From NCBI GenBank assembly GCA_034723545.1, contig JAYEPA010000001.1, forward strand, positions 2,227 to 55,467: a stretch of DNA of 53,241 nt, written 5' to 3'. Of the stretch, positions 10,758-47,324 are shown in pieces. Position 1 is the stretch's first letter, and each line of letters starts with the position of its first letter. Source of the DNA: Thermodesulfobacteriota bacterium. GTDB taxonomy: Bacteria > Desulfobacterota > Desulfobulbia > Desulfobulbales > SURF-16. The notes under the pieces are model-generated. The model searched no databases. It was not told where the DNA came from and saw nothing but the letters and a program-made list of their open reading frames with translations. The position numbers and the translations under genes were made by a program.

Positions 10758-10820
10758 TTAAGTGCCTTACGCCTGAACTTCTGTCAAAAAAACAAGCAAC
10801 TCAGAAATGTTTGAAATAAG

Positions 10821-10989
10821 GTAACTATTCAGCTGCACCCCATCTTCGCCCATTTAGAGCTTCTCGAGTAACATTAGTACGCTTCAAATCTCTAAATGAA
10901 CAGGTAAGCGTAGACTCCGAATATGGGGCACATCTGAACAGTTACAGACCAAGTTTTTCGTAACATTTTTATACACGCTGAATAGTTAC
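10821..10989. mobile_element. Family A MITE (IS66-like ends)
   Basis: GTAACTATTCAG...CTGAATAGTTAC; 8-bp TSD GAAATAAG on both sides; micro-insert at 10902-10918. Confidence 0.9.
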
Positions 10990-11008
10990 GAAATAAGTTA
11001 GTTCTGTC

Positions 11009-11160
11009 GTATCTATTCAGCTACACCCCATCTTCGTCCATTTAAGCCTTTTCGAATAGCACCAGTATGCTTCAAAGTCTTAAATAAACGAATATGGGGC
11101 ACATCTGAATAGATACATTCGGTGGTTTTGGTTATTTTGAGATACTCGCTGAATAGTTAC
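11009..11160. mobile_element. Family A MITE (152-bp copy without insert)
   Basis: GTATCTATTCAG...CTGAATAGTTAC; TSD GTTCTGTC. Confidence 0.9.
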
Positions 11161-11247
11161 GTTCTGTCTAGTACCAAGGCACTTACACCCGCCAAGCGAG
11201 TACTGAAAAGAGTCCTGAAAGCTAATGTGGTTTTCCGCTTTAGTGGG

Positions 11248-14366: not shown

Positions 14367-14787
14367 GTAACTATTCAGATGTGCTCCATCTTCGCCCATA
14401 TTTGGTCTTCTCGAATAGCACCAGTGCGGAGTCTTCGCTTCGCTCCGCTTACCGTTCAAAGCCCAGGTAAGCGTAGACTCCGAAATGAACGAATATGGAG
14501 CACATCTTAACAGTTACAGGCCGAGTTTTTCGTAACATTTTCACATACGCTTCTTCTAAGTAACAAGATTCTGATTAGCCTGTATAAAAAACGAAGAATC
14601 AGCACGATAAGTTAAAATTGGCCACTTACGTCATCCCGGCATGTTTTTAGCCGGGATCCAGGATGGTGTGTGTGGCTACTTTCTGGATTCCGGCTAAGGA
14701 CATGCCGGAATGACGATATAATTTATTTTGTTACTTGTAAAATAGATGCCGGGATCTTTACCCCCGGTTGCCTTGCTGAATAATTAC
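14367..14787. mobile_element. Composite family A MITE with two micro-inserts and nested repeats
   Basis: GTAACTATTCAG...CTGAATAATTAC; TSD GAGATTAT; internal end copy ends at 14517. Confidence 0.88.
14629..14715. repeat. CGTC-class REP doublet inside an AAGTAACAA...TTGTTACTT-bounded segment (14558-14736)
   Basis: CGTCATCCCGGCATG...GCCGGGATCCAG / CTGGATTCCGGC...CATGCCGGAATGACG. Confidence 0.75.
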
Positions 14788-31582: not shown

Positions 31583-32962
31583 ATGAACCAGAAAAAAACC
31601 ATTCTTCTCTTTCTCCTGTTTCTTTTTGTTTTTTGTGGATGCGCACAAAATTTGACCATCAAAAATGCCAGGAAGGCTGGAGCAAAGCAACTTACAGGAA
31701 ATCAGTTGATTCAGCTGGTATCAGATAATACCCTGCATATGATAACTTGGGATCAATCCCTGGAGGCCGATGTCTTCTGTCAGGAAAACGGGCGGATCCA
31801 GGCGGAGAACAACAAGGGGGAAATCAGTGACGGCAGATGGCAGATCTCCAAGGGCGATCAACTTTGTCTGCAATTTAAGGACTGGGGCGATGGAGACAAA
31901 ATTTGTTATTCGATTTTAAAAATGAATGACAGCTATCAGGCTTTCCGGGGAGATGGGGGACTTGAATATACCTTTACCCTCTCCCATGAAGTTTTTAATG
32001 ATTCCCTTGAATCGGCCTCTCCGACAAAAAAGGCTGTAGAGGCACCGGTACAGGCCCAGGAAGATCATTGGTATGATTTTTTAATTTTTCCCAGAAAGGA
32101 AAAGGATTCATCGCCAGAATCCAGCTCAGTTGCCGTCGAGAAAGCCCAGCCGCCTGCCAAGTTTAAGGAGCAGGAGAGTCATTGGTATGATTTTATGACC
32201 TTTGGTGGTGATTCTAGCGACGAAGTGAAAGAGCCTACCCGTACCGAAGCGCACAAACGGCTTCTCGAAACAAAGAGCTGTTCAACGTGTGATCTGAGCG
32301 GCGTGGATTTGCAGAAGGCAGTGTTGAAGAAAGCAGATCTTGCCGGTGCTAATTTAAGTGGTGCCGATCTTTCCCTGGCTAATCTGGCCAAAGCGAATCT
32401 GTCCGGCGCTAACTTGTCCGGTGCCAACCTGGCGGAAGCAAATCTTGTCCAGGCGGATCTTTCCGGTGCGGATCTTTCCGGTGCCAATCTTCACTGGGCC
32501 ATATTGACCAGAGCCAATTTGTCCGGAGCCAATCTGAAAAATGCCTTTCTCGTCAAAGCCGACTGTTATAAAGCCGACTTTACCGATGCTGATTTGACCG
32601 ATGCCATTACGCAAAGAGCAAATTTTGACAAGGCTAAAGGAATTGATCTGGTGCTTGATGGGATTGAGCCGGCACCTGATCTGATTGAGCCGACGCCTGA
32701 TGGGAGTGAGTTGGCGCCTGTTGGGATTGATCCGGTACCTGATGTAACTGAGCCGACGCCTGATGGGAGTGAGTTGGCACCTGTTGGGATTGATCTATCG
32801 CCTGGTGAGGTTGGTCCGGCACCTGTTGGGATTGATCCGGCATCTGATGGGGTTGATCCGGCACCTGTTGGGATTGATCTGGCACCTGATGGGGTTGATC
32901 CGGCACCTGTTGGGATTGATCTGACGCCTGTTGAGATTGAGCCGGCGCCTGATGGTGAATAA
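31583..32962 (+). CDS. Pentapeptide-repeat lipoprotein with a Pro-rich heptad tail
   Basis: Signal with lipobox FCGC from ATG 31583; A(D/N)LSG repeats; 15 seven-residue repeats. Confidence 0.85.
   Translation: MNQKKTILLFLLFLFVFCGCAQNLTIKNARKAGAKQLTGNQLIQLVSDNTLHMITWDQSLEADVFCQENGRIQAENNKGEISDGRWQISKGDQLCLQFKDWGDGDKICYSILKMNDSYQAFRGDGGLEYTFTLSHEVFNDSLESASPTKKAVEAPVQAQEDHWYDFLIFPRKEKDSSPESSSVAVEKAQPPAKFKEQESHWYDFMTFGGDSSDEVKEPTRTEAHKRLLETKSCSTCDLSGVDLQKAVLKKADLAGANLSGADLSLANLAKANLSGANLSGANLAEANLVQADLSGADLSGANLHWAILTRANLSGANLKNAFLVKADCYKADFTDADLTDAITQRANFDKAKGIDLVLDGIEPAPDLIEPTPDGSELAPVGIDPVPDVTEPTPDGSELAPVGIDLSPGEVGPAPVGIDPASDGVDPAPVGIDLAPDGVDPAPVGIDLTPVEIEPAPDGE
32639..32953 (+). repeat. Coding 21-bp tandem repeat, 15 units
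   Basis: GIDPAPV / GVDPAPV-type units (gggattgatccggcacctgtt). Confidence 0.9.
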
Positions 32963-32973
32963 AGTTGTATTGG

Positions 32974-33051
32974 TTTTTTTTAACGCAAAGATCGCAAAGA
33001 GACACAGAGAGATTGTTTTTTGCGCTCTCTGTGTCTTTGGGTTGAAAAAAA
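32974..33051. terminator. Palindrome between convergent genes (bidirectional terminator or dispersed repeat)
   Basis: agacacagagag / ctctctgtgtct stem flanked by T and A runs. Confidence 0.55.
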
Positions 33052-35351: not shown

Positions 35352-35397
35352 TATAGTCACCGAGTCACATACGTTTACTGATTTTTTAAAATATTTT

Positions 35398-35598
35398 ATA
35401 ACTATTCAGGTGGGGCCACCAAATTGGCCTAACCTCCGTTCCGTAACTGTTCAGATGTGCTTCATATTCGTTCATTCGGAGTCTCGTTCCTCACTTACCT
35501 GGGGCTTTGAACGGTAAGCGGAGCGAAGCGTAGACTCCGCACTGGTGCTATTCGAGAAGACCTAAATGGGCGAAGATGGAGTGCAGATGAATAGTTAC
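35398..35598. mobile_element. Family A MITE (inverted) with two micro-inserts
   Basis: ATAACTATTCAG...ATGAATAGTTAC; TSD AATATTTT. Confidence 0.9.
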
Positions 35599-35707
35599 AA
35601 TATTTTTTTGAATCTCTGTAGACTCTGTGAAAATTCTAAATAAAGTATCATAGGAAGTAATATACATAGATGGCGATGAAGTCAACTTTGACAGTAAGCG
35701 ATGAAAC

Positions 35708-36476: not shown

Positions 36477-36652
36477 TTGATTGGCTATCTTGTAAAGAAA
36501 AAAATGAAGAGTTCATGGTTTAACGGTATAATGTTGTCATAAATTTTTTTCTGAAGTCCGGATGTTCATTTTTTACGATCTTGTTAAGATCATTTCCCGC
36601 CCTTGACATCTCATTTTGAAAAGACTTAAATGGCGTCAATGCTAAAAAAAAC

Positions 36653-36821
36653 ATAACTATTCAGCGTAGGTAAAATATTCCGAAAAATTCGGTCTGTAAC
36701 TGTTCAGATGTGCTTCATATTCGTTCATTTCGGAGTCTACGCTTACCTGGGCTTTGAAGCATACTAGTGTTATTCGAGAAGGCCAAATATGGGCGAAGAT
36801 GAAGTGCAGCTGAATAGTTAC
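36653..36821. mobile_element. Family A MITE (inverted) inserted into the 5' end of aroK
   Basis: ATAACTATTCAG...CTGAATAGTTAC; TSD AAAAAAAC; micro-insert at 36732-36748. Confidence 0.9.
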
Positions 36822-37352
36822 AAAAAAACAAAGGTGATTTTGACAGGTTATCGGGCAACAGGAAAAAGTTCGGTTGGCAGGATCCTGGCCTCTATGCTGG
36901 ATTGGCGCTTCATTGATACCGATTTTGAAATCGAAAAAAGGCAGGGATTCTCAATCAGCCGGATAGTTGCCAAAAAGGGTTGGAAATTTTTCAGGGAACA
37001 GGAAAAAAAAATCCTTACAGAACTAGCGGAACGGGAGCAGGTTGTTATCGCCACCGGCGGCGGAGCCATCATGCATCAGCAAATATGGAACCGTCTGATG
37101 AAAAACGGGCTGGTTGTCTGGCTGACCGCTGATCCCCAAGTCATCTGTCAACGCCTTGCCGCCGATCCTGTTACGGAAGGTCAGCGGCCCTCTTTGACAA
37201 GCAGTGATATTTTAACAGAGGTCGAATCCGTGCTGCAGGAACGGGAACCTCTTTACCGGGCCGGCTCACATCTTAAAATCGATTCATCTTGTTCCGTTGT
37301 GGAAATCACTGAGGAAATAATGGCCTTTCTGGGTCGGATAAACCGTAATTAA
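36789..37352 (+). CDS. aroK: Shikimate kinase (N terminus derived from the MITE)
   Basis: GYRATGKS P-loop, DTD, FREQE, ATGGG, RPSL, REPLY. Confidence 0.9.
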   Translation: MGEDEVQLNSYKKTKVILTGYRATGKSSVGRILASMLDWRFIDTDFEIEKRQGFSISRIVAKKGWKFFREQEKKILTELAEREQVVIATGGGAIMHQQIWNRLMKNGLVVWLTADPQVICQRLAADPVTEGQRPSLTSSDILTEVESVLQEREPLYRAGSHLKIDSSCSVVEITEEIMAFLGRINRN

Positions 37353-37589: not shown

Positions 37590-38660
37590 ATGGCAGGAAA
37601 TACATTTGGACAGGTTTTTCGGGTGACGACCTGGGGCGAGTCCCATGGCACGGCGGTGGGGGCAACTATTGACGGATGTCCCCCAGGCTTATTGTTGACC
37701 CAGGAGATGATTCAAAAGGATATGGAGCGGCGGCGGCCCGGAACCGGAGGGGCAGCCAGTCCGCGCAAGGAACCGGATCAAGTGGAGATTCTCTCCGGTA
37801 TCTACGAGAATAAAACCACCGGCACCCCTCTTACCCTGGTTATCTACAATAAGGATGCCCACAGCAAGTCCTATGATACCCTGAAGAATATTTTTCGACC
37901 TGGTCATGGCGACATTACCTATCTGCGGAAGTATGGTATCCGGGATCATCGTGGCGGCGGCCGGGCATCGGCCAGGGAAACCGCAGCCCGTGTTGCTGTT
38001 GGAGCTGTGGCGCGGCAGCTGCTCGCTTCCAGAAATATTCAGGTTCAGGCTTACACCATAGCCCTGGGTGGTGTTGAAATCAGCAAGCGGGACATGAACG
38101 ACATTTCGAAAAACAGACTGTTTTGTCCTGATAATGAGGCGGCGGAACGTATGGAGGAGAGGATTGTCGAGGTGCGAAAGCAGCATGATTCGCTGGGCGG
38201 CATCGTCGAGATCCTCGCAAAAGGGTGTCCTGCAGGACTGGGAGAGCCGGTTTTTAACAAACTTGACGCGGAACTTGCCGGAGCCCTGATGTCCATCGGC
38301 GCTGTCAAGGGAGTGGAAATTGGCGCAGGTTTTGAGGCGGCTCGCCTGACCGGATCGGAAAACAATGATCCCATCACGCCTGGTGGCTTTGCGACAAACC
38401 GCTCGGGCGGAATCCTGGCCGGGATTTCCAACGGTGACGATATCGTCGCCCGTGTTGCCGTTAAGCCCATTCCTTCCATTGCCAGAGAGCAACAGACTGT
38501 TGACCTGGACAACAACCCGACCACCATCAAGGTCGGTGGACGTCATGATATCTCAGCGATACCGAGGATTATCCCTGTTTGCGAGGCCATGGTCTGTTTG
38601 ACCTTGGCCGATCATTTTTTGCGTCAGCAGGCGATTATGGGTTTCGCTGATCAGGAGTGA
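37590..38660 (+). CDS. aroC: Chorismate synthase
   Basis: GESHG, RPGH, RASARET, KPIPSI, GRHD. Confidence 0.97.
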   Translation: MAGNTFGQVFRVTTWGESHGTAVGATIDGCPPGLLLTQEMIQKDMERRRPGTGGAASPRKEPDQVEILSGIYENKTTGTPLTLVIYNKDAHSKSYDTLKNIFRPGHGDITYLRKYGIRDHRGGGRASARETAARVAVGAVARQLLASRNIQVQAYTIALGGVEISKRDMNDISKNRLFCPDNEAAERMEERIVEVRKQHDSLGGIVEILAKGCPAGLGEPVFNKLDAELAGALMSIGAVKGVEIGAGFEAARLTGSENNDPITPGGFATNRSGGILAGISNGDDIVARVAVKPIPSIAREQQTVDLDNNPTTIKVGGRHDISAIPRIIPVCEAMVCLTLADHFLRQQAIMGFADQE

Positions 38661-40264
38661 GGAGCCGAAAAAATATCGTGAAAGAACAAAAATATCCGTT
38701 GAAAACGATCTGGATGATCAGCCGGGAGTATGACGGCCTGGCCGGTGCAGGAGGGGTAAAGGATGTTTGCCGCCAGCTTGCCGAAGCCCTGGTCGCGGAA
38801 GGGAAAAATGTCAGCGTTATTCTGCCGTTTTATGGGTTCATGAAACTGGAAGAGACCGGCTTCAGGCTGTTTGATTCCTTTCAGGTTGATATGAACTATG
38901 TCGGCGTGGAACGCAGGGAGCAGGTGCAGATTTGGATCAGACAGCACGAGGACAAACCGACAATCTATCTGGTTGACGCGGCACGCTATCAGGAAAAGAA
39001 ATCCGTCTACACCTATACTGCCGAGGATGAGGCCGAAGATCCCGCCCATGTTCAGGGCACGGGCCATTATGATTACTTTGCCATGAATGTTCTGCTGCAG
39101 AAAACGGCAATTGATCTCATGCTCTGCCTGGGAGAAAAGGTGGATCTCATTCATTGTCATGATGGTCATACCGCCCTGTTGCCGGCCATGATTAAGGAAA
39201 ATGAGGGATATCGCCATTATTTTAGAAAAACGGGCCTGGTGGTGACCATCCATAATGCGGGATTGGGTTATCATCAGGAAGTGGCGGATTTGCCTTTTGC
39301 CAAAGTCGTTTCCGGCTTGCCTGGAAAGGTGCTTGCCAGAAATTTGCTGAAGGGCAGCTTTGACCCCTTTCTTGCCGCTTCCTCCTATGCTGTTCTTAAT
39401 ACCGTCAGTGAAAATTATGCCCGTGAGCTGCGGGAAACAGATGATGATGAACTGACGGGATTTCTGGGCCACATCCTGCTTTCCAGGGGAGTGACGCTTG
39501 AAGGTGTGACCAACGGCATCTCACCGGCCGATTTTGATACCCGAGAGCATGAAAAGCTCGGCATCGACGCCGGCTATTCGGTGATGGCTGGAGATTTTGC
39601 CGGTAAGATTATCTGTCGGCAAAAACTGATCCAGGATATTAACGGCAAAAAATTGACTCATGTTCAGCAGAACGGCAGCCTGACCCAGGCAGATGACGTG
39701 CCGCTTTTGACCCTGATCGGTCGTCTGACCGCCCAGAAAGGGGTGGATAAATTGATCGGCGCTCTTGAAACACTGTTGCCCACGGACAAAGAATTTCAGG
39801 TTTTGATTCTCGGAAGCGGTATCAGGGAGATTGAAGACGGATTGCTCCGGTTGACGAAAAACAGTGCAAACAAGGGACGGGTCTGTCTGTTGCGGGGCTA
39901 TGATCCTGGGCTTGCGAACCGGATTTATGCGGCTGGAGATTTTTTTCTTGTTCCGTCGAGATACGAGCCCTGTGGCCTGACGGATTATATTGCCCAGCTT
40001 TTCGGTAACCTTCCCATTGTTCATCATATCGGCGGGCTGGTGAAAGTAATTGACGGCAAAACAGGATTTACCTATCAGGATCACAGTTCCGCTGCTCTTA
40101 TGGGCGCCATGCAGAAGGCGATTCGCGTCTATCGGAAGCAGAATGGCCGGATCAAAGAAATGCAGCTGCAGGCTGTCACAACGATTTCAGAAAAATATAC
40201 CTGGAAAAAAATTGTCCATCGTTACCTGCATCTCTACGGCAAGGCTCTGGATATGGCCGGATAA
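38657..40264 (+). CDS. glgA: Glycogen synthase-like glycosyltransferase (GT5)
   Basis: HCHD, TIHN..Y, TVSENYA, GRLTAQKG, PSRYEPCGL; atypical N-terminal GAGGVKDV. Confidence 0.8.
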   Translation: MRSRKNIVKEQKYPLKTIWMISREYDGLAGAGGVKDVCRQLAEALVAEGKNVSVILPFYGFMKLEETGFRLFDSFQVDMNYVGVERREQVQIWIRQHEDKPTIYLVDAARYQEKKSVYTYTAEDEAEDPAHVQGTGHYDYFAMNVLLQKTAIDLMLCLGEKVDLIHCHDGHTALLPAMIKENEGYRHYFRKTGLVVTIHNAGLGYHQEVADLPFAKVVSGLPGKVLARNLLKGSFDPFLAASSYAVLNTVSENYARELRETDDDELTGFLGHILLSRGVTLEGVTNGISPADFDTREHEKLGIDAGYSVMAGDFAGKIICRQKLIQDINGKKLTHVQQNGSLTQADDVPLLTLIGRLTAQKGVDKLIGALETLLPTDKEFQVLILGSGIREIEDGLLRLTKNSANKGRVCLLRGYDPGLANRIYAAGDFFLVPSRYEPCGLTDYIAQLFGNLPIVHHIGGLVKVIDGKTGFTYQDHSSAALMGAMQKAIRVYRKQNGRIKEMQLQAVTTISEKYTWKKIVHRYLHLYGKALDMAG

Positions 40265-40270
40265 CATGAA

Positions 40271-40419
40271 GTAAATATTCGACAGCACTCCACAGGAAGG
40301 CGATCAGGCTACCCCGCATACCGATGTGTAGCAAGTTAGCCTGCTTAACTCCCTGTGAAGCGCTGTCAAACATTTACAAGTTGGTGGTTTGAGTTATTTT
40401 CATTGAGCCGAATGTTTAC
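40271..40419. mobile_element. Family A-like MITE, subfamily A3
   Basis: GTAAATATTCG...CGAATGTTTAC; TSD AACATGAA; internal end copy ends at 40377. Confidence 0.88.
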
Positions 40420-40454
40420 AACATGAAAAGCACTTATTTTCTGAAGATAGTATC

Positions 40455-41279
40455 ATGACTGAGCTAAGGCAACAGCAATCCCCCGTTGTTTTATCAAACC
40501 GATGGTTTGCCCAGCGACATGATTTTTTTGTCAAAAATGTGTTTGAAGGGTTTTATAAAAATCGGACCTTCTTCATTGGGCTGTATGATCGGTATAACAA
40601 TACCGGGCAGATCTCGTTTTCTGATATAGCCGAACTGGTCGGTGTTGAAAATCACAAAGGGTTGTGGCTCGTCAAGGATCGCTGTCATCAGCTCTGGCGC
40701 GATGGTGAATCCCGGTTTGACAGCAATGGTTTTTTTCTTGATTGGGTGATCGGTTCTCTTTTTCATGAGGCTGTCAAGCTGAAAGAAAATATCTATATGT
40801 TTCACTTCTATGCGCCCCAGGCGGATGAGATTAAAAAGCAGTTCAAAAATGAAATAATGGGAAGCGATGCAGCATGCCTGAGTTTTATGGAAGGAACCGA
40901 GGTGGAGATTCGGAAGCAGATGGATAATCTTGCCTTGCTGTTTGGCCGGGCCAATTATCTGCTGCGCTCCATGCTGGTCAGCCAGTCCGGCAATGTGTTG
41001 TTAATTCGCTATCTGATCGAAAGAAAAGATGTTGTACAAGAACTTTGGTCCGAGTCCCTGGAAGAACTTTTTGACGATATGTATCCCGGCGGGCCGGAGC
41101 AGGGGTTTTGTCTGGCCGGGAAAAACTATCTTGACGGACATTGGCATGACAGGGCATTTATGGCCTATTCCGCCGCCTTGGAGATCAACCCGAAATGTGA
41201 CGATGCTCTGCGCAGGATCTCTCAGATCAAGATCACGTTACGGCATAAGGAAGAATTCGGCCAGGTTGAATTAAATTGA
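40455..41279 (+). CDS. Hypothetical protein with a C-terminal TPR-like helix pair
   Basis: 274-aa ORF; AYSAALEINP TPR signature. Confidence 0.75.
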   Translation: MTELRQQQSPVVLSNRWFAQRHDFFVKNVFEGFYKNRTFFIGLYDRYNNTGQISFSDIAELVGVENHKGLWLVKDRCHQLWRDGESRFDSNGFFLDWVIGSLFHEAVKLKENIYMFHFYAPQADEIKKQFKNEIMGSDAACLSFMEGTEVEIRKQMDNLALLFGRANYLLRSMLVSQSGNVLLIRYLIERKDVVQELWSESLEELFDDMYPGGPEQGFCLAGKNYLDGHWHDRAFMAYSAALEINPKCDDALRRISQIKITLRHKEEFGQVELN

Positions 41280-41304
41280 ACAAAAAATTCTACACGATAA
41301 AATG

Positions 41305-41475
41305 GTAAACATTCGGGTTGGAGTTAAATCAGTGCTAAAGCCACTAAATTGTAAATATTTGGATAACAGCGAAGCGGTGTCAGCTCCAATTTAGTTCAAG
41401 TCGCCTTGTGAGCTATATTAGTCATATGTGAGTAAGGCGAATCGGACGAAATTGGGGTGCTAGCCGAATATTTAT
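41305..41475. mobile_element. Family A-like MITE, subfamily A2 (inverted), next to the gap RBS
   Basis: GTAAACATTCG...CGAATATTTAT; TSD ATAAAATG. Confidence 0.9.
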
Positions 41476-41494
41476 ATAAAATGGGAGACAGGTT

Positions 41495-42499
41495 ATGACG
41501 GTAAAGGTTGGAATTAACGGATTTGGACGAATCGGCAGAAATATTTTCAGGGCCATTGATAAGGATGAAACATTTGCGGATATCGAGGTCGTAGCCATCA
41601 ATGACCTTACCAACAATGAAACACTGGCCCATCTGCTCAAATATGATTCGGTTATGGGTGTGTATGAGCGGGATGTGAAGGCAGATGAAAAAGGCATTGT
41701 CGTTGATGGCCGGCATATCGATATTTTTAATCACCGCAATCCAGCCGAGATTCCCTGGGGCAGTATCGGCGTGGATTATGTCATTGAGTCAACCGGTCTG
41801 TTCCGTGACGCTGAAAGTGCCGGCGCTCATCTTGATGCAGGTGCTAAAAAAGTGGTGATTTCAGCACCGGCCAAGGGAAAAATTAGAACCATTGTCATGG
41901 GTGTCAATGAGCATGAGTATGATCCAAGCAAGGACCATATTGTTTCAAATGCGTCCTGCACCACCAACTGCCTTGCCCCGGTTGCCAAGGTTATTCTTGA
42001 TCATTTCGGCATCAAAAAGGGCCTGATGACAACGATCCATGCCTATACTAATGATCAGCGCATTCTTGACTTTCCCCACTCGGATCTGCGCCGGGCCAGG
42101 GCTGCCGCTGTTTCAATGATCCCGACCGGGACAGGGGCTGCCGCCGCTGTTTCCCTGGTTATTCCGGAGCTGAAAGGAAAATTTGACGGCCTGTCTGTCC
42201 GGGTGCCGACACCCAATGTCTCCCTGGTGGACATGGTTATTGAAGTGGAGCAGGAAACCACGGTTCCGGAAGTGAATCAGGCCTTGAAAGACGCAGCTGA
42301 CCGCTTTCTCGGCTACTCGGACGAGCCCCTGGTTTCCATCGATTACCAGGGCAACCCTCACTCCTCGATTGTTGATGCCATGTCCACTAAGGTCATCGGC
42401 AACATGGTCAAAATTATGACCTGGTATGATAATGAATGGGGCTATTCCAACCGGATGCTGGATTTGATTCTGTTCATGGAAAGCCAGAAACCGTTGTAG
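41495..42499 (+). CDS. gap: Type I glyceraldehyde-3-phosphate dehydrogenase
   Basis: GINGFGRIG, ASCTTNCL, TGAA, RVPT, WYDNEWGYS. Confidence 0.97.
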   Translation: MTVKVGINGFGRIGRNIFRAIDKDETFADIEVVAINDLTNNETLAHLLKYDSVMGVYERDVKADEKGIVVDGRHIDIFNHRNPAEIPWGSIGVDYVIESTGLFRDAESAGAHLDAGAKKVVISAPAKGKIRTIVMGVNEHEYDPSKDHIVSNASCTTNCLAPVAKVILDHFGIKKGLMTTIHAYTNDQRILDFPHSDLRRARAAAVSMIPTGTGAAAAVSLVIPELKGKFDGLSVRVPTPNVSLVDMVIEVEQETTVPEVNQALKDAADRFLGYSDEPLVSIDYQGNPHSSIVDAMSTKVIGNMVKIMTWYDNEWGYSNRMLDLILFMESQKPL

Positions 42500-42557
42500 A
42501 GGAATCAGTTAGATTGGTTTTATTGGTTGGATTTGTTTAAATAGTTCTTCAACCAGT

Positions 42558-42711
42558 GTAAATATTCGGGTAGCACCTCATCTTCGCCCATTAGGCCCAG
42601 CTCGAGTAGCACTAGTACGCTTCGCTGCCCCAAATGAACGAATATAAGGCACTACCCAAATATTTACAGTTCCAGGTTGTTGCGATTTTTTCGTATAACC
42701 CGAATATTTAC
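42558..42711. mobile_element. Family A MITE with variant ends, inserted in a 9-mer repeat tract
   Basis: GTAAATATTCGGG...CCCGAATATTTAC; TSD CAACCAGT. Confidence 0.9.
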
Positions 42712-42765
42712 CAACCAGTTCAACCAATCTAACCAATTCAACCAGTAAAACCAGTTTAACCAATC
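42712..42765 (+). repeat. Nonamer tandem repeat (NAACCART[CTA], 6 units), with inverted units at 42508-42538
   Basis: caaccagtt caaccaatc taaccaatt caaccagta aaaccagtt taaccaatc; a similar tract flanks the element at 17748-18022. Confidence 0.75.
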
Positions 42766-42778
42766 CAACAAAAAAACC

Positions 42779-45700
42779 ATGCCCCCCATCCAATCAGATG
42801 CCCTGAAGGCAAATCTCGAGGAAACCGCAGTTGACGAGGTCGTCATCGATCCCGCCATGGAGGTTCTCATCGAGATTGTCCACGATATGAAGGGAATTCG
42901 CAACTCCATCGAAGAGTTGCTCTATGAGATTCATCATCCCTTCCGAAACTGGAACATGATTGTTCCCAGACTGCGGACATTTGTTCTGAAAAACGAGAGA
43001 TTGTATCATCGTCATCCTATGGGTGCCGAGGCCTTCAGCCGTTTTACCGATATCTTTTTTCTGGCCCTGCAAGAGGCTGGTAAAAACCATACCCTGCTGG
43101 CCCTGACTATGGAATCTCTCCTTGCCTATTTTGCAAAGAGCGTAACCCTGGAACCAAAAACCCTGCCGCGTTTTGAACCTGCCCATGCCGCCTGTTTTGA
43201 AAAATTGCGCGGCCTTGATGATCAGATCATTATGTACATGGTTCAGGGTCGTCATCCCATGAAGAAAATTGCCATCTTTCTTTTGCACTACAGTGAGGAG
43301 GAAAACCAGGCCTATGATCTGCGGCCCGTGGGATGTCTCATGCAGCGGGTGCTGACGTTAAATTACGAATACTGGCTGGCGGAAGAGGATCCCCTGCCCT
43401 GGTTTCTGGCCGAGTGCAGCGATATGTGCAATGACTGGCAGGCCGGCAAACTTTTCCATGCTGTTTCCCATGAGCAGCTCACGCTCCATCTGGACGCTCT
43501 TGGCAGGATTGATATTGAAACATCACCCGGTCGGTTGCTGGAGATCCTTGCCCTGCCCTCCCATATGGATCTTGTCCGCCTGTACAAGGATATCCCGAAA
43601 AAACTGGCTGAATTGCAGAAAAACGGGGAATCCGGAGAGGGAAAGGACAAAGCGGACCGGTTTGCCGAGAACCGGAAATTGCTTTTTCTCTTTCGGATCA
43701 TGAGGACCTCCGGTCTTTACCTGATTCACGAAGAGACCCTGCGGGAAATCAACCGCAGCCTGGTGCAGCTGATTCGCCTCCAGACCTTTGAAGAGATTAA
43801 ATCCTTTTTGCTCACCACGCTGCATCTCTTGAAGGCCAATGTCAGAAAATATCCCCATACCTCCATGCAATGCATTCAGGTTCTGGGAACCGAGGTCTTC
43901 AAGCGCGGCAATAGCAGGCTTGTGGAAACCTTTCTTTTTGAAGTTGTTCGTTTCGGTTTCCAGTTCGCCAATGTCGTCGGGGTTGATGAGGATTGGCAGC
44001 CCATAACAAATCCTGCTCATCTGGCTAATATTCGCGTCTGGCTGAACATGATCATGCAGGAGCCCAAATGGTGCTCCATCCTGTTCTCGGCCCTGATCAT
44101 TAACCTCAATCTCTCCGGAACCTGCGTCAAGGATACCGACCTCTTTCAACGTGACATTACCAGGCTTCTGAATCATCCCATTGAGCCGGTTTATAACCTG
44201 GTAAAACAGTTTGCCAAGATCATGCCGGTTTTCTTTAACGAAATCGGCGCGGAAGGAAAGCTGCGTGATGTCTCCACCGAGATTGACGAGACCCACAAGC
44301 GAAAGGATCTCCTGATCCATTTTCTCCGCAAGCAGAGCCATGTGGAAAGCTCAAATCTCATTGTCGATTTTATCCGAGCCATTATCATCTTCTGGAAAAC
44401 AAGGGACAAGGAGGAGTTACGGGATTACCTGCCCGATGAGATCCTGAGCCAGGTGGCGACCGAGGGTGTTTTTGTTAATGATCTTCATTTGCTGGTCAAC
44501 CGAGCCTTTGCGCTGCCTAATATCAGCACGGAGAAAGATCTGCTTGACTGGGACCAGCAGCACATCGACCTTTTTTTGGCTGAGCAAACCGACCTGAACC
44601 CGGTCGAGGTCAACCGGTTTTCCTTGCTGGTCAAGATGTACAAGCTGCTGGATCAGAAATACAATCTGGGCCTGCAGCAGTTTCGCCAGCAGCTTGAGCA
44701 GGCAATTAACTCCGGCTTTCCGGAGATGGAGGAACTGCTGGCCGATCTGGAGATCTGTGACACCTTCCAGTGTCTTGGCGCCCTTCTTGACGGACTGGAG
44801 AGATTGAAGGATATTATCCAGAGTGACGAGGTTTTTCCCGTGCAGGAGGATATCTATCATAAGAGGCACATTGCCGTGGATATTCCCTCGGTTTATGGTC
44901 GTTACAGCGAGAAAAAATTTGATGCCCTGGGCCTGACTTTTCGGCTGGAAAGTTTGGCCAACATCTATCTGGAAAAGTTGCCTTCCACGGTGAATCTTTC
45001 TTTTATCACCCGGGCCACTTTTATTGACATCGTCAAATGTCTCAAGCTGTACCTGCGAGCCTTGAATATTGACGGCATTTCCAGCCGCAGGCTGCAGACT
45101 TATGTCTCGCTGCTGTCAAGTTCCCTGAAACTCAGGCGGTTTTCCTATACCCAGTATCTGGACATTCTGCGCGGTCTTTCAGAAGGGGTCAAGGATGTCA
45201 TTTATGCCTATTACACCAATATTCACCAGAATAATCTTTCTATTATCATTCCCCAGATCGGTTCAAGAAATTTACTGGCAAAATACCGCAATCTCTGGCA
45301 CCAGGCCGCAGTCCATGGGCAGGGGAAAGTTCCTGTCGACGATGTGGTGGATTTGCCGACCAAGGCCAGTATTCATCGTTTGTCCGAGGCCTTTCTCCGT
45401 GATCTGATTGCCACCACTTTTGGACTGCAGCATCTGGATAATTTTATCACCAGGATCTACCAGACCCTGGAGCGGCAAATAAAAGTGCTGGACGAAGAAC
45501 GCCTTGACCTTCTGATGACCTATAATCCGGAAAGGGTTATTCATCTGCTGCACCGGCGGAATCCCGAAACCCATAATTTGATTCTCCTCGGCAATAAGGG
45601 TTTTAATCTGACCCTGCTGGCCGATGATGATAAACCGGTGCCGCCTGGTTTTATCATCACCACCGAAATTTTCCGCTGCTGGCCGGTGGTCAAGGATTTT

Positions 45701-47068: not shown

Positions 47069-47147
47069 GGAATCGAATGAAGTAGCTTTAAAAGGCACAT
47101 TTCCAGAAAGTGGCAGTAATTGGGCAATGTATACACTAGAGAAATTG

Positions 47148-47324
47148 GTAATAGTTCACCAGCACCCCATCTATGCACGATCAGGCCGGCTCACAGGACT
47201 ACTATCGTTCGCTGGCCTGATCGGAGTCTCCGCTACACTATGCTTACCTGCACATATATGAGGCACTGGTAAACTATCATATTTCGGAATTCCCCCAAGG
47301 ATTTAGCCCTTGGTGAGCTGCTAC
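47148..47324. mobile_element. Family A-like MITE, subfamily A4, with micro-insert
   Basis: GTAATAGTTCACCA...TGGTAAACTATCAT...TGGTGAGCTGCTAC with the same geometry; no TSD retained. Confidence 0.7.

Follow-up and report, generated by a model that had tools for sequence, protein, structure and literature searches.

The window analyzed here, the whole stretch of 53,241 nt, lies within the genome that we searched, an assembly of 3.32 Mb in 307 contigs. Immediately 3' of the stop codon that ends a starch-synthase-like glycosyltransferase ORF (38657-40264), the window contains a long hairpin for which a preliminary description of the sequence had given the span 40271-40377. This span holds as the extent of the hairpin, which is the core of a non-autonomous transposon (MITE) of approximately 150 bp. 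It does not hold as the extent of the whole element, which runs from 40271 to 40419 and takes in a spacer of 29 nt as well as the true right end. The MITE is non-coding, its termini read GTAA...TTAC, and it lies between two copies of an 8-bp duplication, the left of which overlaps the glycosyltransferase ORF by two bases, the final two of its stop codon. The parts of the element are as follows:

40271-40419, minus strand: MITE of 149 bp, whose folding strand (F) is the minus strand; the order on F is outer end, spacer, hairpin
40271-40377, minus strand: long, imperfect hairpin, whose 3' arm on F finishes in a transposon end
40378-40406, minus strand: spacer of 29 nt, separating the foot of the hairpin from the outer end
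40407-40419, minus strand: outer terminal inverted repeat of 13 nt (the third repeat), the true end of the element, with the target duplication directly after it
40263-40270, no strand: left copy of the 8-bp target-site duplication, AACATGAA, identical to the right copy
40420-40427, no strand: right copy of the 8-bp target-site duplication, AACATGAA, identical to the left copy

The architecture of hairpin, spacer and end is common to the elements at 40271, 42558, 10821 and 11009, and recurs in the opposite orientation at 35398 and 36653. The sequence of the spacer varies from subfamily to subfamily. Besides the element at 40271, the window hosts the following copies:

42558-42711, minus strand: MITE of 154 bp, related subfamily, with target duplication CAACCAGT at 42550-42557 and 42712-42719
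10821-10989, minus strand: MITE of 169 bp, subfamily SF7 with a 17-nt module, target duplication GAAATAAG at 10813-10820 and 10990-10997
11009-11160, minus strand: MITE of 152 bp, subfamily SF6, target duplication GTTCTGTC at 11001-11008 and 11161-11168
35398-35598, plus strand: MITE of 201 bp with module insertions, F being the plus strand, target duplication AATATTTT at 35390-35397 and 35599-35606
36653-36821, plus strand: MITE of 169 bp, SF9-like, F being the plus strand, target duplication AAAAAAAC at 36645-36652 and 36822-36829
47141-47285, minus strand: hairpin of a diverged subfamily, assigned by the hairpin alone and left unoriented, as its outer end was not identified

The window also contains other repeats. 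A module of 16-26 nt, GGAGTCT...GCTTACC, occupies varying positions within the hairpin arms of different copies; it is found in the window at 10849-10866 and 36698-36715, and in the genome 181 times, with 140 occurrences within MITE loci. Among 40 oriented cases, 31 have the module in the 5' arm and 28 have it reading on F. Its appearance suggests a nested micro-insertion or an exchanged cassette. The inverted repeat at 14629-14715 (33-nt arms, 88% complementary, with a gap of 21 nt) adjoins a degenerate MITE copy and is unrelated to the MITE in sequence. The tandem array at 32618-32995 is composed of approximately 18 units of 21 nt (12 overlapping 147-nt copies with 21-nt spacing and 61-77% identity); it is probably part of a coding region, where it would encode a repeat of 7 residues. 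The MITE at 42558-42711, which sits between GAPDH and a PPDK-like gene, is flanked on both sides by degenerate short repeats rich in GGTT/AACC (42502-42546 and 42711-42776), which are mutually inverted. Since these repeats are also present at the empty site of relatives, they are not parts of the MITE.

Using nine window copies as BLAST queries, we identified the family at 364 loci, including the one at 40271, which account for 1.27% of the genome. Since 96 of the 364 loci lie no more than 300 bp from a contig end, the family is probably one cause of the fragmented assembly. The median length of the 119 copies that could be oriented is 152 bp, and 95 of them show both an 8-bp duplication matching at at least 7 of 8 positions and ends matching at at least 9 of 10. 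These 8-bp duplications are rich in A and T, approximately symmetric and without a preferred orientation, T exceeding A in 41 and A exceeding T in 44. We compared one insertion site with its empty counterpart: at a collinear intergenic region of a genome related at 97% (locus L153), the position of the 42558 copy is occupied by a single CAACCAGT and no element. GAPDH beside this copy shares 97-98% identity with GAPDH of Desulfobulbaceae genome bins, of which L153 is one.

Short and filled by the hairpin, the MITEs have, to judge from their sequence, no room for a transposase gene. The same genome contains a single-copy, single-ORF IS of 1730 bp (C36:124-1853), whose transposase belongs to DDE_Tnp_IS66 (PF03050, E = 2e-45) and whose 16-bp ends are those of the MITEs. 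The terminal match between MITEs and the IS66-family IS spans 13-16 bp, the outer repeat at 40407-40419 falls in the same terminus class, and no homology between the MITE interior and this IS was found beyond the ends. We retained 79 loci of transposase relatives from many phyla: 54 of them have like ends at a spacing of 1.7-2.0 kb and, by our reading, 23 have identical 8-bp flanks. GTAA at the ends and a duplication of 8 bp, both of which the MITEs have, are features given by ISfinder for the IS66 family, and the single-ORF group within it corresponds to the ISBst12-like group of ISfinder. These similarities point to a single-ORF IS66-family DDE transposase as the probable partner that mobilizes the MITE family in trans. 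When the spacer end of the MITE was compared with the left and right IS ends in order to relate it to the transposase strand, the scores were no better than those of shuffled sequences. The left ends of related IS66-type ISs (L034-L039 and C36:124-1853) share a conserved CTTGACA approximately 44-50 nt inside the end, likely the -35 box of the transposase promoter, and the MITEs do not have it.

To compare the mismatches of the two strands, we delimited the stems with a stem-only dynamic programme that penalizes A-C and G-T alike. Local alignment of each sequence with its own reverse complement was dropped because it joined neighbouring elements and crossed loops. The orientation of each element was assigned from the side of the outer (third) terminal repeat only, which is a landmark independent of the mismatches. 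A first version of this rule left 88 of 181 genome hairpins unoriented, as their stems ran a few bases into the flanks; with the revised rule 62 hairpins remained unoriented and were excluded from the oriented counts. In the outer 26 pairs of the hairpin at 40271-40377 there are four mismatches (arm positions 7, 10, 17 and 20), all of them A-C on the plus strand and G-T on the minus strand, exactly as first described. Over its full length, this hairpin has 38 Watson-Crick pairs, 8 A-C, 1 G-T and 3 transversion mismatches on the plus strand. The same bias had been claimed for the copies at 10821, 42558 and 47148, and it recurs in each: the plus-strand counts of Watson-Crick, A-C, G-T and transversion pairs are 23, 3, 0 and 2 for 10821-10945, 35, 6, 0 and 4 for 42557-42668, and 26, 5, 1 and 1 for 47141-47285.

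The polarity extends to the whole genome. The 119 of 181 hairpins that are orientable lie 60 one way and 59 the other, and G-T exceeds A-C on F in 118 of them, with one tie and no reversal, although this count overstates the number of independent events because many G-U positions are inherited by descent. In total, the F strands of the 119 elements hold 692 G-T and 78 A-C mismatches. The 62 unoriented hairpins, many of which are at contig ends, are mostly strongly polarized one way or the other. Transversion mismatches are also asymmetric: on F, 351 are purine-purine (mostly A-G and G-A) and only 29 are pyrimidine-pyrimidine, and the purine-purine bias is detectable in 114 of the 119 elements and inverted in none. 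The imperfections of the F strand are G-U/G-T wobbles and G-A purine pairs, which on the complement become A-C and C-T clashes.

The difference between strands is also evident from the folding energies, a comparison that the preliminary description had proposed. With RNA parameters, the mean energy is -59.4 kcal/mol for F and -38.7 kcal/mol for the complement, and F is the more stable strand in all 65 distinct hairpins. With DNA parameters, the corresponding values are -29.4 and -19.4 kcal/mol, and F is again more stable in 74 of 74 hairpins. The consensus sequences of the subfamilies fold on F into two competing structures. In one of them, which is the minimum-energy fold of SF7 and SF9, a perfect pairing of 13 bp between the 5' and 3' ends closes a multibranch loop; in the other, found in SF6, SF8, SF10 and SF11, the internal arm pairs with the 3' end via wobbles. 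According to these predictions, the two folds could be a switch.

Pairing is maintained through coordinated changes. Variable pairs shift between C-G, U-G and U-A and almost never pass through C-A: pair 18 is C-G in 50 copies, U-G in 12, U-A in 32 and C-A in none, and pair 19 is C-G in 40, U-G in 23, U-A in 30 and C-A in one. Most copies retain the tandem U-G/G-U of pairs 15-16 and the A-G of pairs 12 and 23. We measured covariation on a structure-blind MAFFT alignment of 22 copies from 13 genomes, for which RNAalifold predicts 42 pairs. Standard pairing occurs in 94.5% of the cells compared to 88.7% in shuffles, and both-side changes affect 19 pairs compared to 6.3 expected; none of 500 shuffles was as high in either measure. 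The same cells read on the complement are paired in 77% of cases (701 + 10 of 920), and slid controls pair at 40-46%. The earlier reading had named equal A-C and G-T frequencies and no covariation as the outcome that would speak against it; we observe 692 against 78 and covariation well outside the shuffles. In SF6 (for example 11009-11160), a compensated A/T swap is common to the internal arm and the 3' end and is absent from the 5' end. This swap breaks the symmetry with the 5' end, and therefore it is the pairing of the hairpin that is conserved and not the identity of the three end-like sites.

We then considered the point in the life of the element at which selection acts. Taken together, six subfamily consensus sequences contain 34 G-U and no A-C. 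On a FastTree phylogeny of 79 distinct hairpins, parsimony assigns to the internal branches 28 changes from Watson-Crick to G-U, one from Watson-Crick to A-C, 22 from G-U to Watson-Crick and 58 double compensations. On the terminal branches of the same tree, which derive from de-duplicated sequences and mix changes after insertion with earlier history, the ratio of G-U to A-C is 36:6. Variants common to at least two copies show the same tendency (15 changes to G-U compared to 5 to A-C, p = 0.04). Singletons in copies that are 80-90% like the consensus show 11 G-U against 12 A-C, with 24 further breaks by transversion, and the ratio for all singletons together is 21:16. Although the counts are small, we read this as selection acting mainly in lineages that go on to transpose, followed by near-neutral decay. 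Some weak selection may act on resident copies too, again on small counts, as in the 36:6 of the terminal branches.

Three explanations of the polarity do without selection on the folding strand. If deamination (C>T and A>G) preferentially hit a more exposed strand, it would yield G-T with no selection on the fold, and in purely formal terms every polarized transition is expressible as C>T or A>G on F. Such a skew should also be detectable outside the stem, and it is absent there: the singleton substitutions at unpaired sites of 104 copies are symmetric (C>T 16 and G>A 16, A>G 9 and T>C 9), the base composition of unpaired sites shows no consistent excess of G over C, and no bias towards F is seen in the spacer beside the hairpin (10 G-U and 22 A-C, with -5.6 kcal/mol on F and -6.7 kcal/mol on the opposite strand, R). 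Strand-specific mutation, moreover, cannot produce compensatory double changes such as the 58 on internal branches, and it is already so largely refuted that we give it hardly any credit. Scarcely more credible is directional repair, in which hairpins of R would lose G-T through G-T-specific repair and keep A-C, equivalent to G-T on F. It predicts the same intermediates as selection on F, but it should operate on every resident copy, whereas old copies gain the two kinds of mismatch equally (11:12), and it explains neither the purine-purine polarity nor the complementarity kept by double changes. The third explanation is a frozen accident, namely that a founder with about six G-U pairs on one strand transmitted them to all copies and that selection does not continue. 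The wobbles at pairs 6, 15, 16, 28 and 29, common to nearly all subfamilies and to other genomes, would be expected from such a founder. New events, however, keep the polarity on internal branches and in shared variants, pairs 18-20, 26 and 28-30 hold C-G, U-G or U-A depending on the subfamily, and SF6 compensated its A/T swap between the internal arm and the 3' end in spite of the broken symmetry with the 5' end. We therefore consider a frozen accident improbable.

The family and its polarity are not restricted to this genome. BLAST with one copy returned matches in 22 of 41 genomes of the same order (G000 included), and in 14 of the 24 other genomes of the same bacterial family. Out of 65 loci from other genomes, 23 were oriented (12 genomes), 27 were unorientable and 15 had no hairpin above threshold. 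All 23 oriented copies show the same polarity, with 129 G-U and 6 A-C on F. When we searched a species-representative collection for an exact 18-base word of the 5' arm, at least 98 stretches matched, nearly all from Desulfobulbales bins. In 46 distinct copies from these matches, considering only pairs outside the search word, the ratio of G-U to A-C is 114:31; 42 copies favour G-U, one favours A-C and three are tied. The exact word also occurs at two loci (L238 and L246) in bins labelled Coleofasciculus (cyanobacteria), where its presence could be due to chance, mis-binning or transfer. The MITE family is abundant in Desulfobulbales, and its hosts are sulfur-cycling bacteria of sediments.

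A fourth explanation keeps selection on the fold and places it at the level of the host. The copies would be co-transcribed with their neighbours, and the RNA hairpin of F would stabilize the mRNA, be cut by RNase III or terminate transcription, functions that have been suggested for Correia, ERIC and REP repeats. According to crude ORF calls, 117 of the 119 copies are intergenic, as expected of such elements, and structured RNAs typically contain G-U and tandem G-A pairs. No Rfam family matched the window at gathering thresholds; at permissive E-values only generic long-hairpin models of microRNA precursors appeared, far below their cut-offs, and these sub-threshold matches scored better on F (37.1 bits) than on the other strand (24 bits). 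The bias that remains on terminal branches also fits a function in resident copies. Orientation with respect to genes, however, is mixed: relative to the upstream gene, F is sense for 44 copies and antisense for 38, and relative to the downstream gene for 49 and 57, respectively. This agrees with the initial statement that the folding strand reads spacer first irrespective of host transcription. A scan of positions 40000-43000 returned 8 promoter-like sites (5.0 ± 2.1 expected) and no terminator-like site. The features of an intrinsic terminator are lacking, as the stem is not followed by a U-tract and is not co-oriented with the upstream gene. A T-rich target site serving as a built-in terminator tail was ruled out by the symmetric consensus of the duplication. 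Finally, old copies lose their pairing with no polarity. On balance, we regard a host-level RNA element as unlikely, less so than the three explanations discussed above.

The hairpin remains foldable on F alone, and we consider it probable that this single-stranded fold is a cis-acting requirement for the propagation of the IS66-mobilized MITE. Selection of the fold in single-stranded form and on one defined strand was proposed from the sequence at the outset, with a small RNA, an RNase III substrate or a single-stranded intermediate as possible roles. The covariation, the half-compensation through G-U and the lack of skew at unpaired sites and in the spacer all support such selection, though not any particular one of these roles. 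The contrast with a plain double-stranded DDE substrate stands as well, since the element, with its target duplication, is a DDE-type MITE of the IS66 family. The polarity cannot arise from a cruciform, in which any transition difference, whatever its direction, carries a penalty of one G-T plus one A-C. It requires a strand-specific single-stranded state that is tied to the asymmetry of the element itself. On F the element reads a 13-nt end, a spacer of approximately 31 nt and a hairpin of approximately 108 nt whose 3' arm finishes in the other end. According to our model, variants that retain the F fold would be copied, inserted copies would decay neutrally, and the fold would act during mobilization.

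The active molecule may be single-stranded DNA, that is, a strand-specific intermediate of transposition or replication in which the hairpin would rebuild a duplex end; slightly less probable is RNA, as a transcript of the element, and the remaining weight falls on other molecules. The tandem U-G/G-U motif and a wobble content of approximately 10-16% look RNA-like, and the DNA nature of the element and the failure to find a promoter argue against RNA. The preliminary description had suggested a comparison of orientation with the replichore, and here no bias emerged: the strand that is locally richer in G coincides with F in 44 of 94 cases, GC skew being a crude proxy for replication direction in an assembly of 307 contigs. 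In this respect the family is unlike known ssDNA transposons, which is a point against our proposal. It is conceivable, though we think it rather doubtful, that IS66 DDE mobilization itself proceeds via a strand-specific single-stranded intermediate. The hairpin would then rebuild the duplex end through pairing of the internal arm with the 3' end, and the wobble and G-A pairs would keep F foldable while keeping the duplex from becoming a perfect palindrome or a competing end. We know of no IS66-family DDE transposase that needs a single-stranded substrate. If true, this would be a DDE element with a single-strand requirement, a property so far tied to HUH and integron systems.

MITEs are usually seen as passive double-stranded substrates with a freely drifting interior. 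The interior of this DDE-type MITE instead behaves as a structured single-stranded molecule across a whole bacterial order, and selection appears on the transposing lineages and not on the resident copies. If this holds, the family offers a testable entry into the almost unstudied mechanism of IS66 transposition and explains how long hairpin repeats persist in bacterial genomes without becoming perfect palindromes. The test of polarity itself, based on symmetric scoring and on orientation by an independent landmark, is reusable on other repeat families.

With the single-ORF ISs of the IS66 family the MITE shares GTAA ends, an 8-bp duplication and a terminal repeat of 13-16 bp. The left part of the MITE contains an additional, slightly modified version of the end that is the foot of a hairpin of 43 pairs, and no such hairpin was seen in the 1730-bp IS. 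REPIN/REP-RAYT and IS200/IS605 resemble the MITE in having a strand-specific hairpin as cis element for mobility, with conserved irregularities of the stem. REP/RAYT and IS200/IS605 rely on an HUH partner and transpose as ssDNA, with neither terminal inverted repeats nor target duplication, and IS200/IS605 elements show an orientation bias relative to the replication strand. The present MITE differs from both in its inverted ends, 8-bp duplication and DDE partner, and in the lack of a skew-linked orientation bias.

A long hairpin at the RNA level is a classic feature of MITEs, according to a review (PMC3184786). The same source describes bcr1 of the Bacillus cereus group as a transcribed MITE-like repeat in which compensatory changes keep the RNA fold (PMC3184786). 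Unlike the present MITE, bcr1 duplicates 5 bp of its target and is a member of another family. In the bcr1 literature consulted, we found no polarity test of G-U against A-C and no contrast between propagating and resident copies. More generally, the openly accessible literature searched yielded neither a description of this MITE family nor a bacterial MITE subjected to a polarity test of this kind. Correia (CREE/NEMIS) of Neisseria and ERIC/IRU of enterobacteria are intergenic MITE-like repeats of approximately 100-170 bp, and these too form long hairpins at the RNA level, as reported in the same review (PMC3184786). In Correia and ERIC/IRU the two terminal repeats by themselves make up the hairpin, and the effects reported for these repeats are tied to host transcription. 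The hairpin of the present MITE, by contrast, is placed asymmetrically in the element, its polarity goes with this asymmetry, and the orientation of the copies with respect to genes is random.
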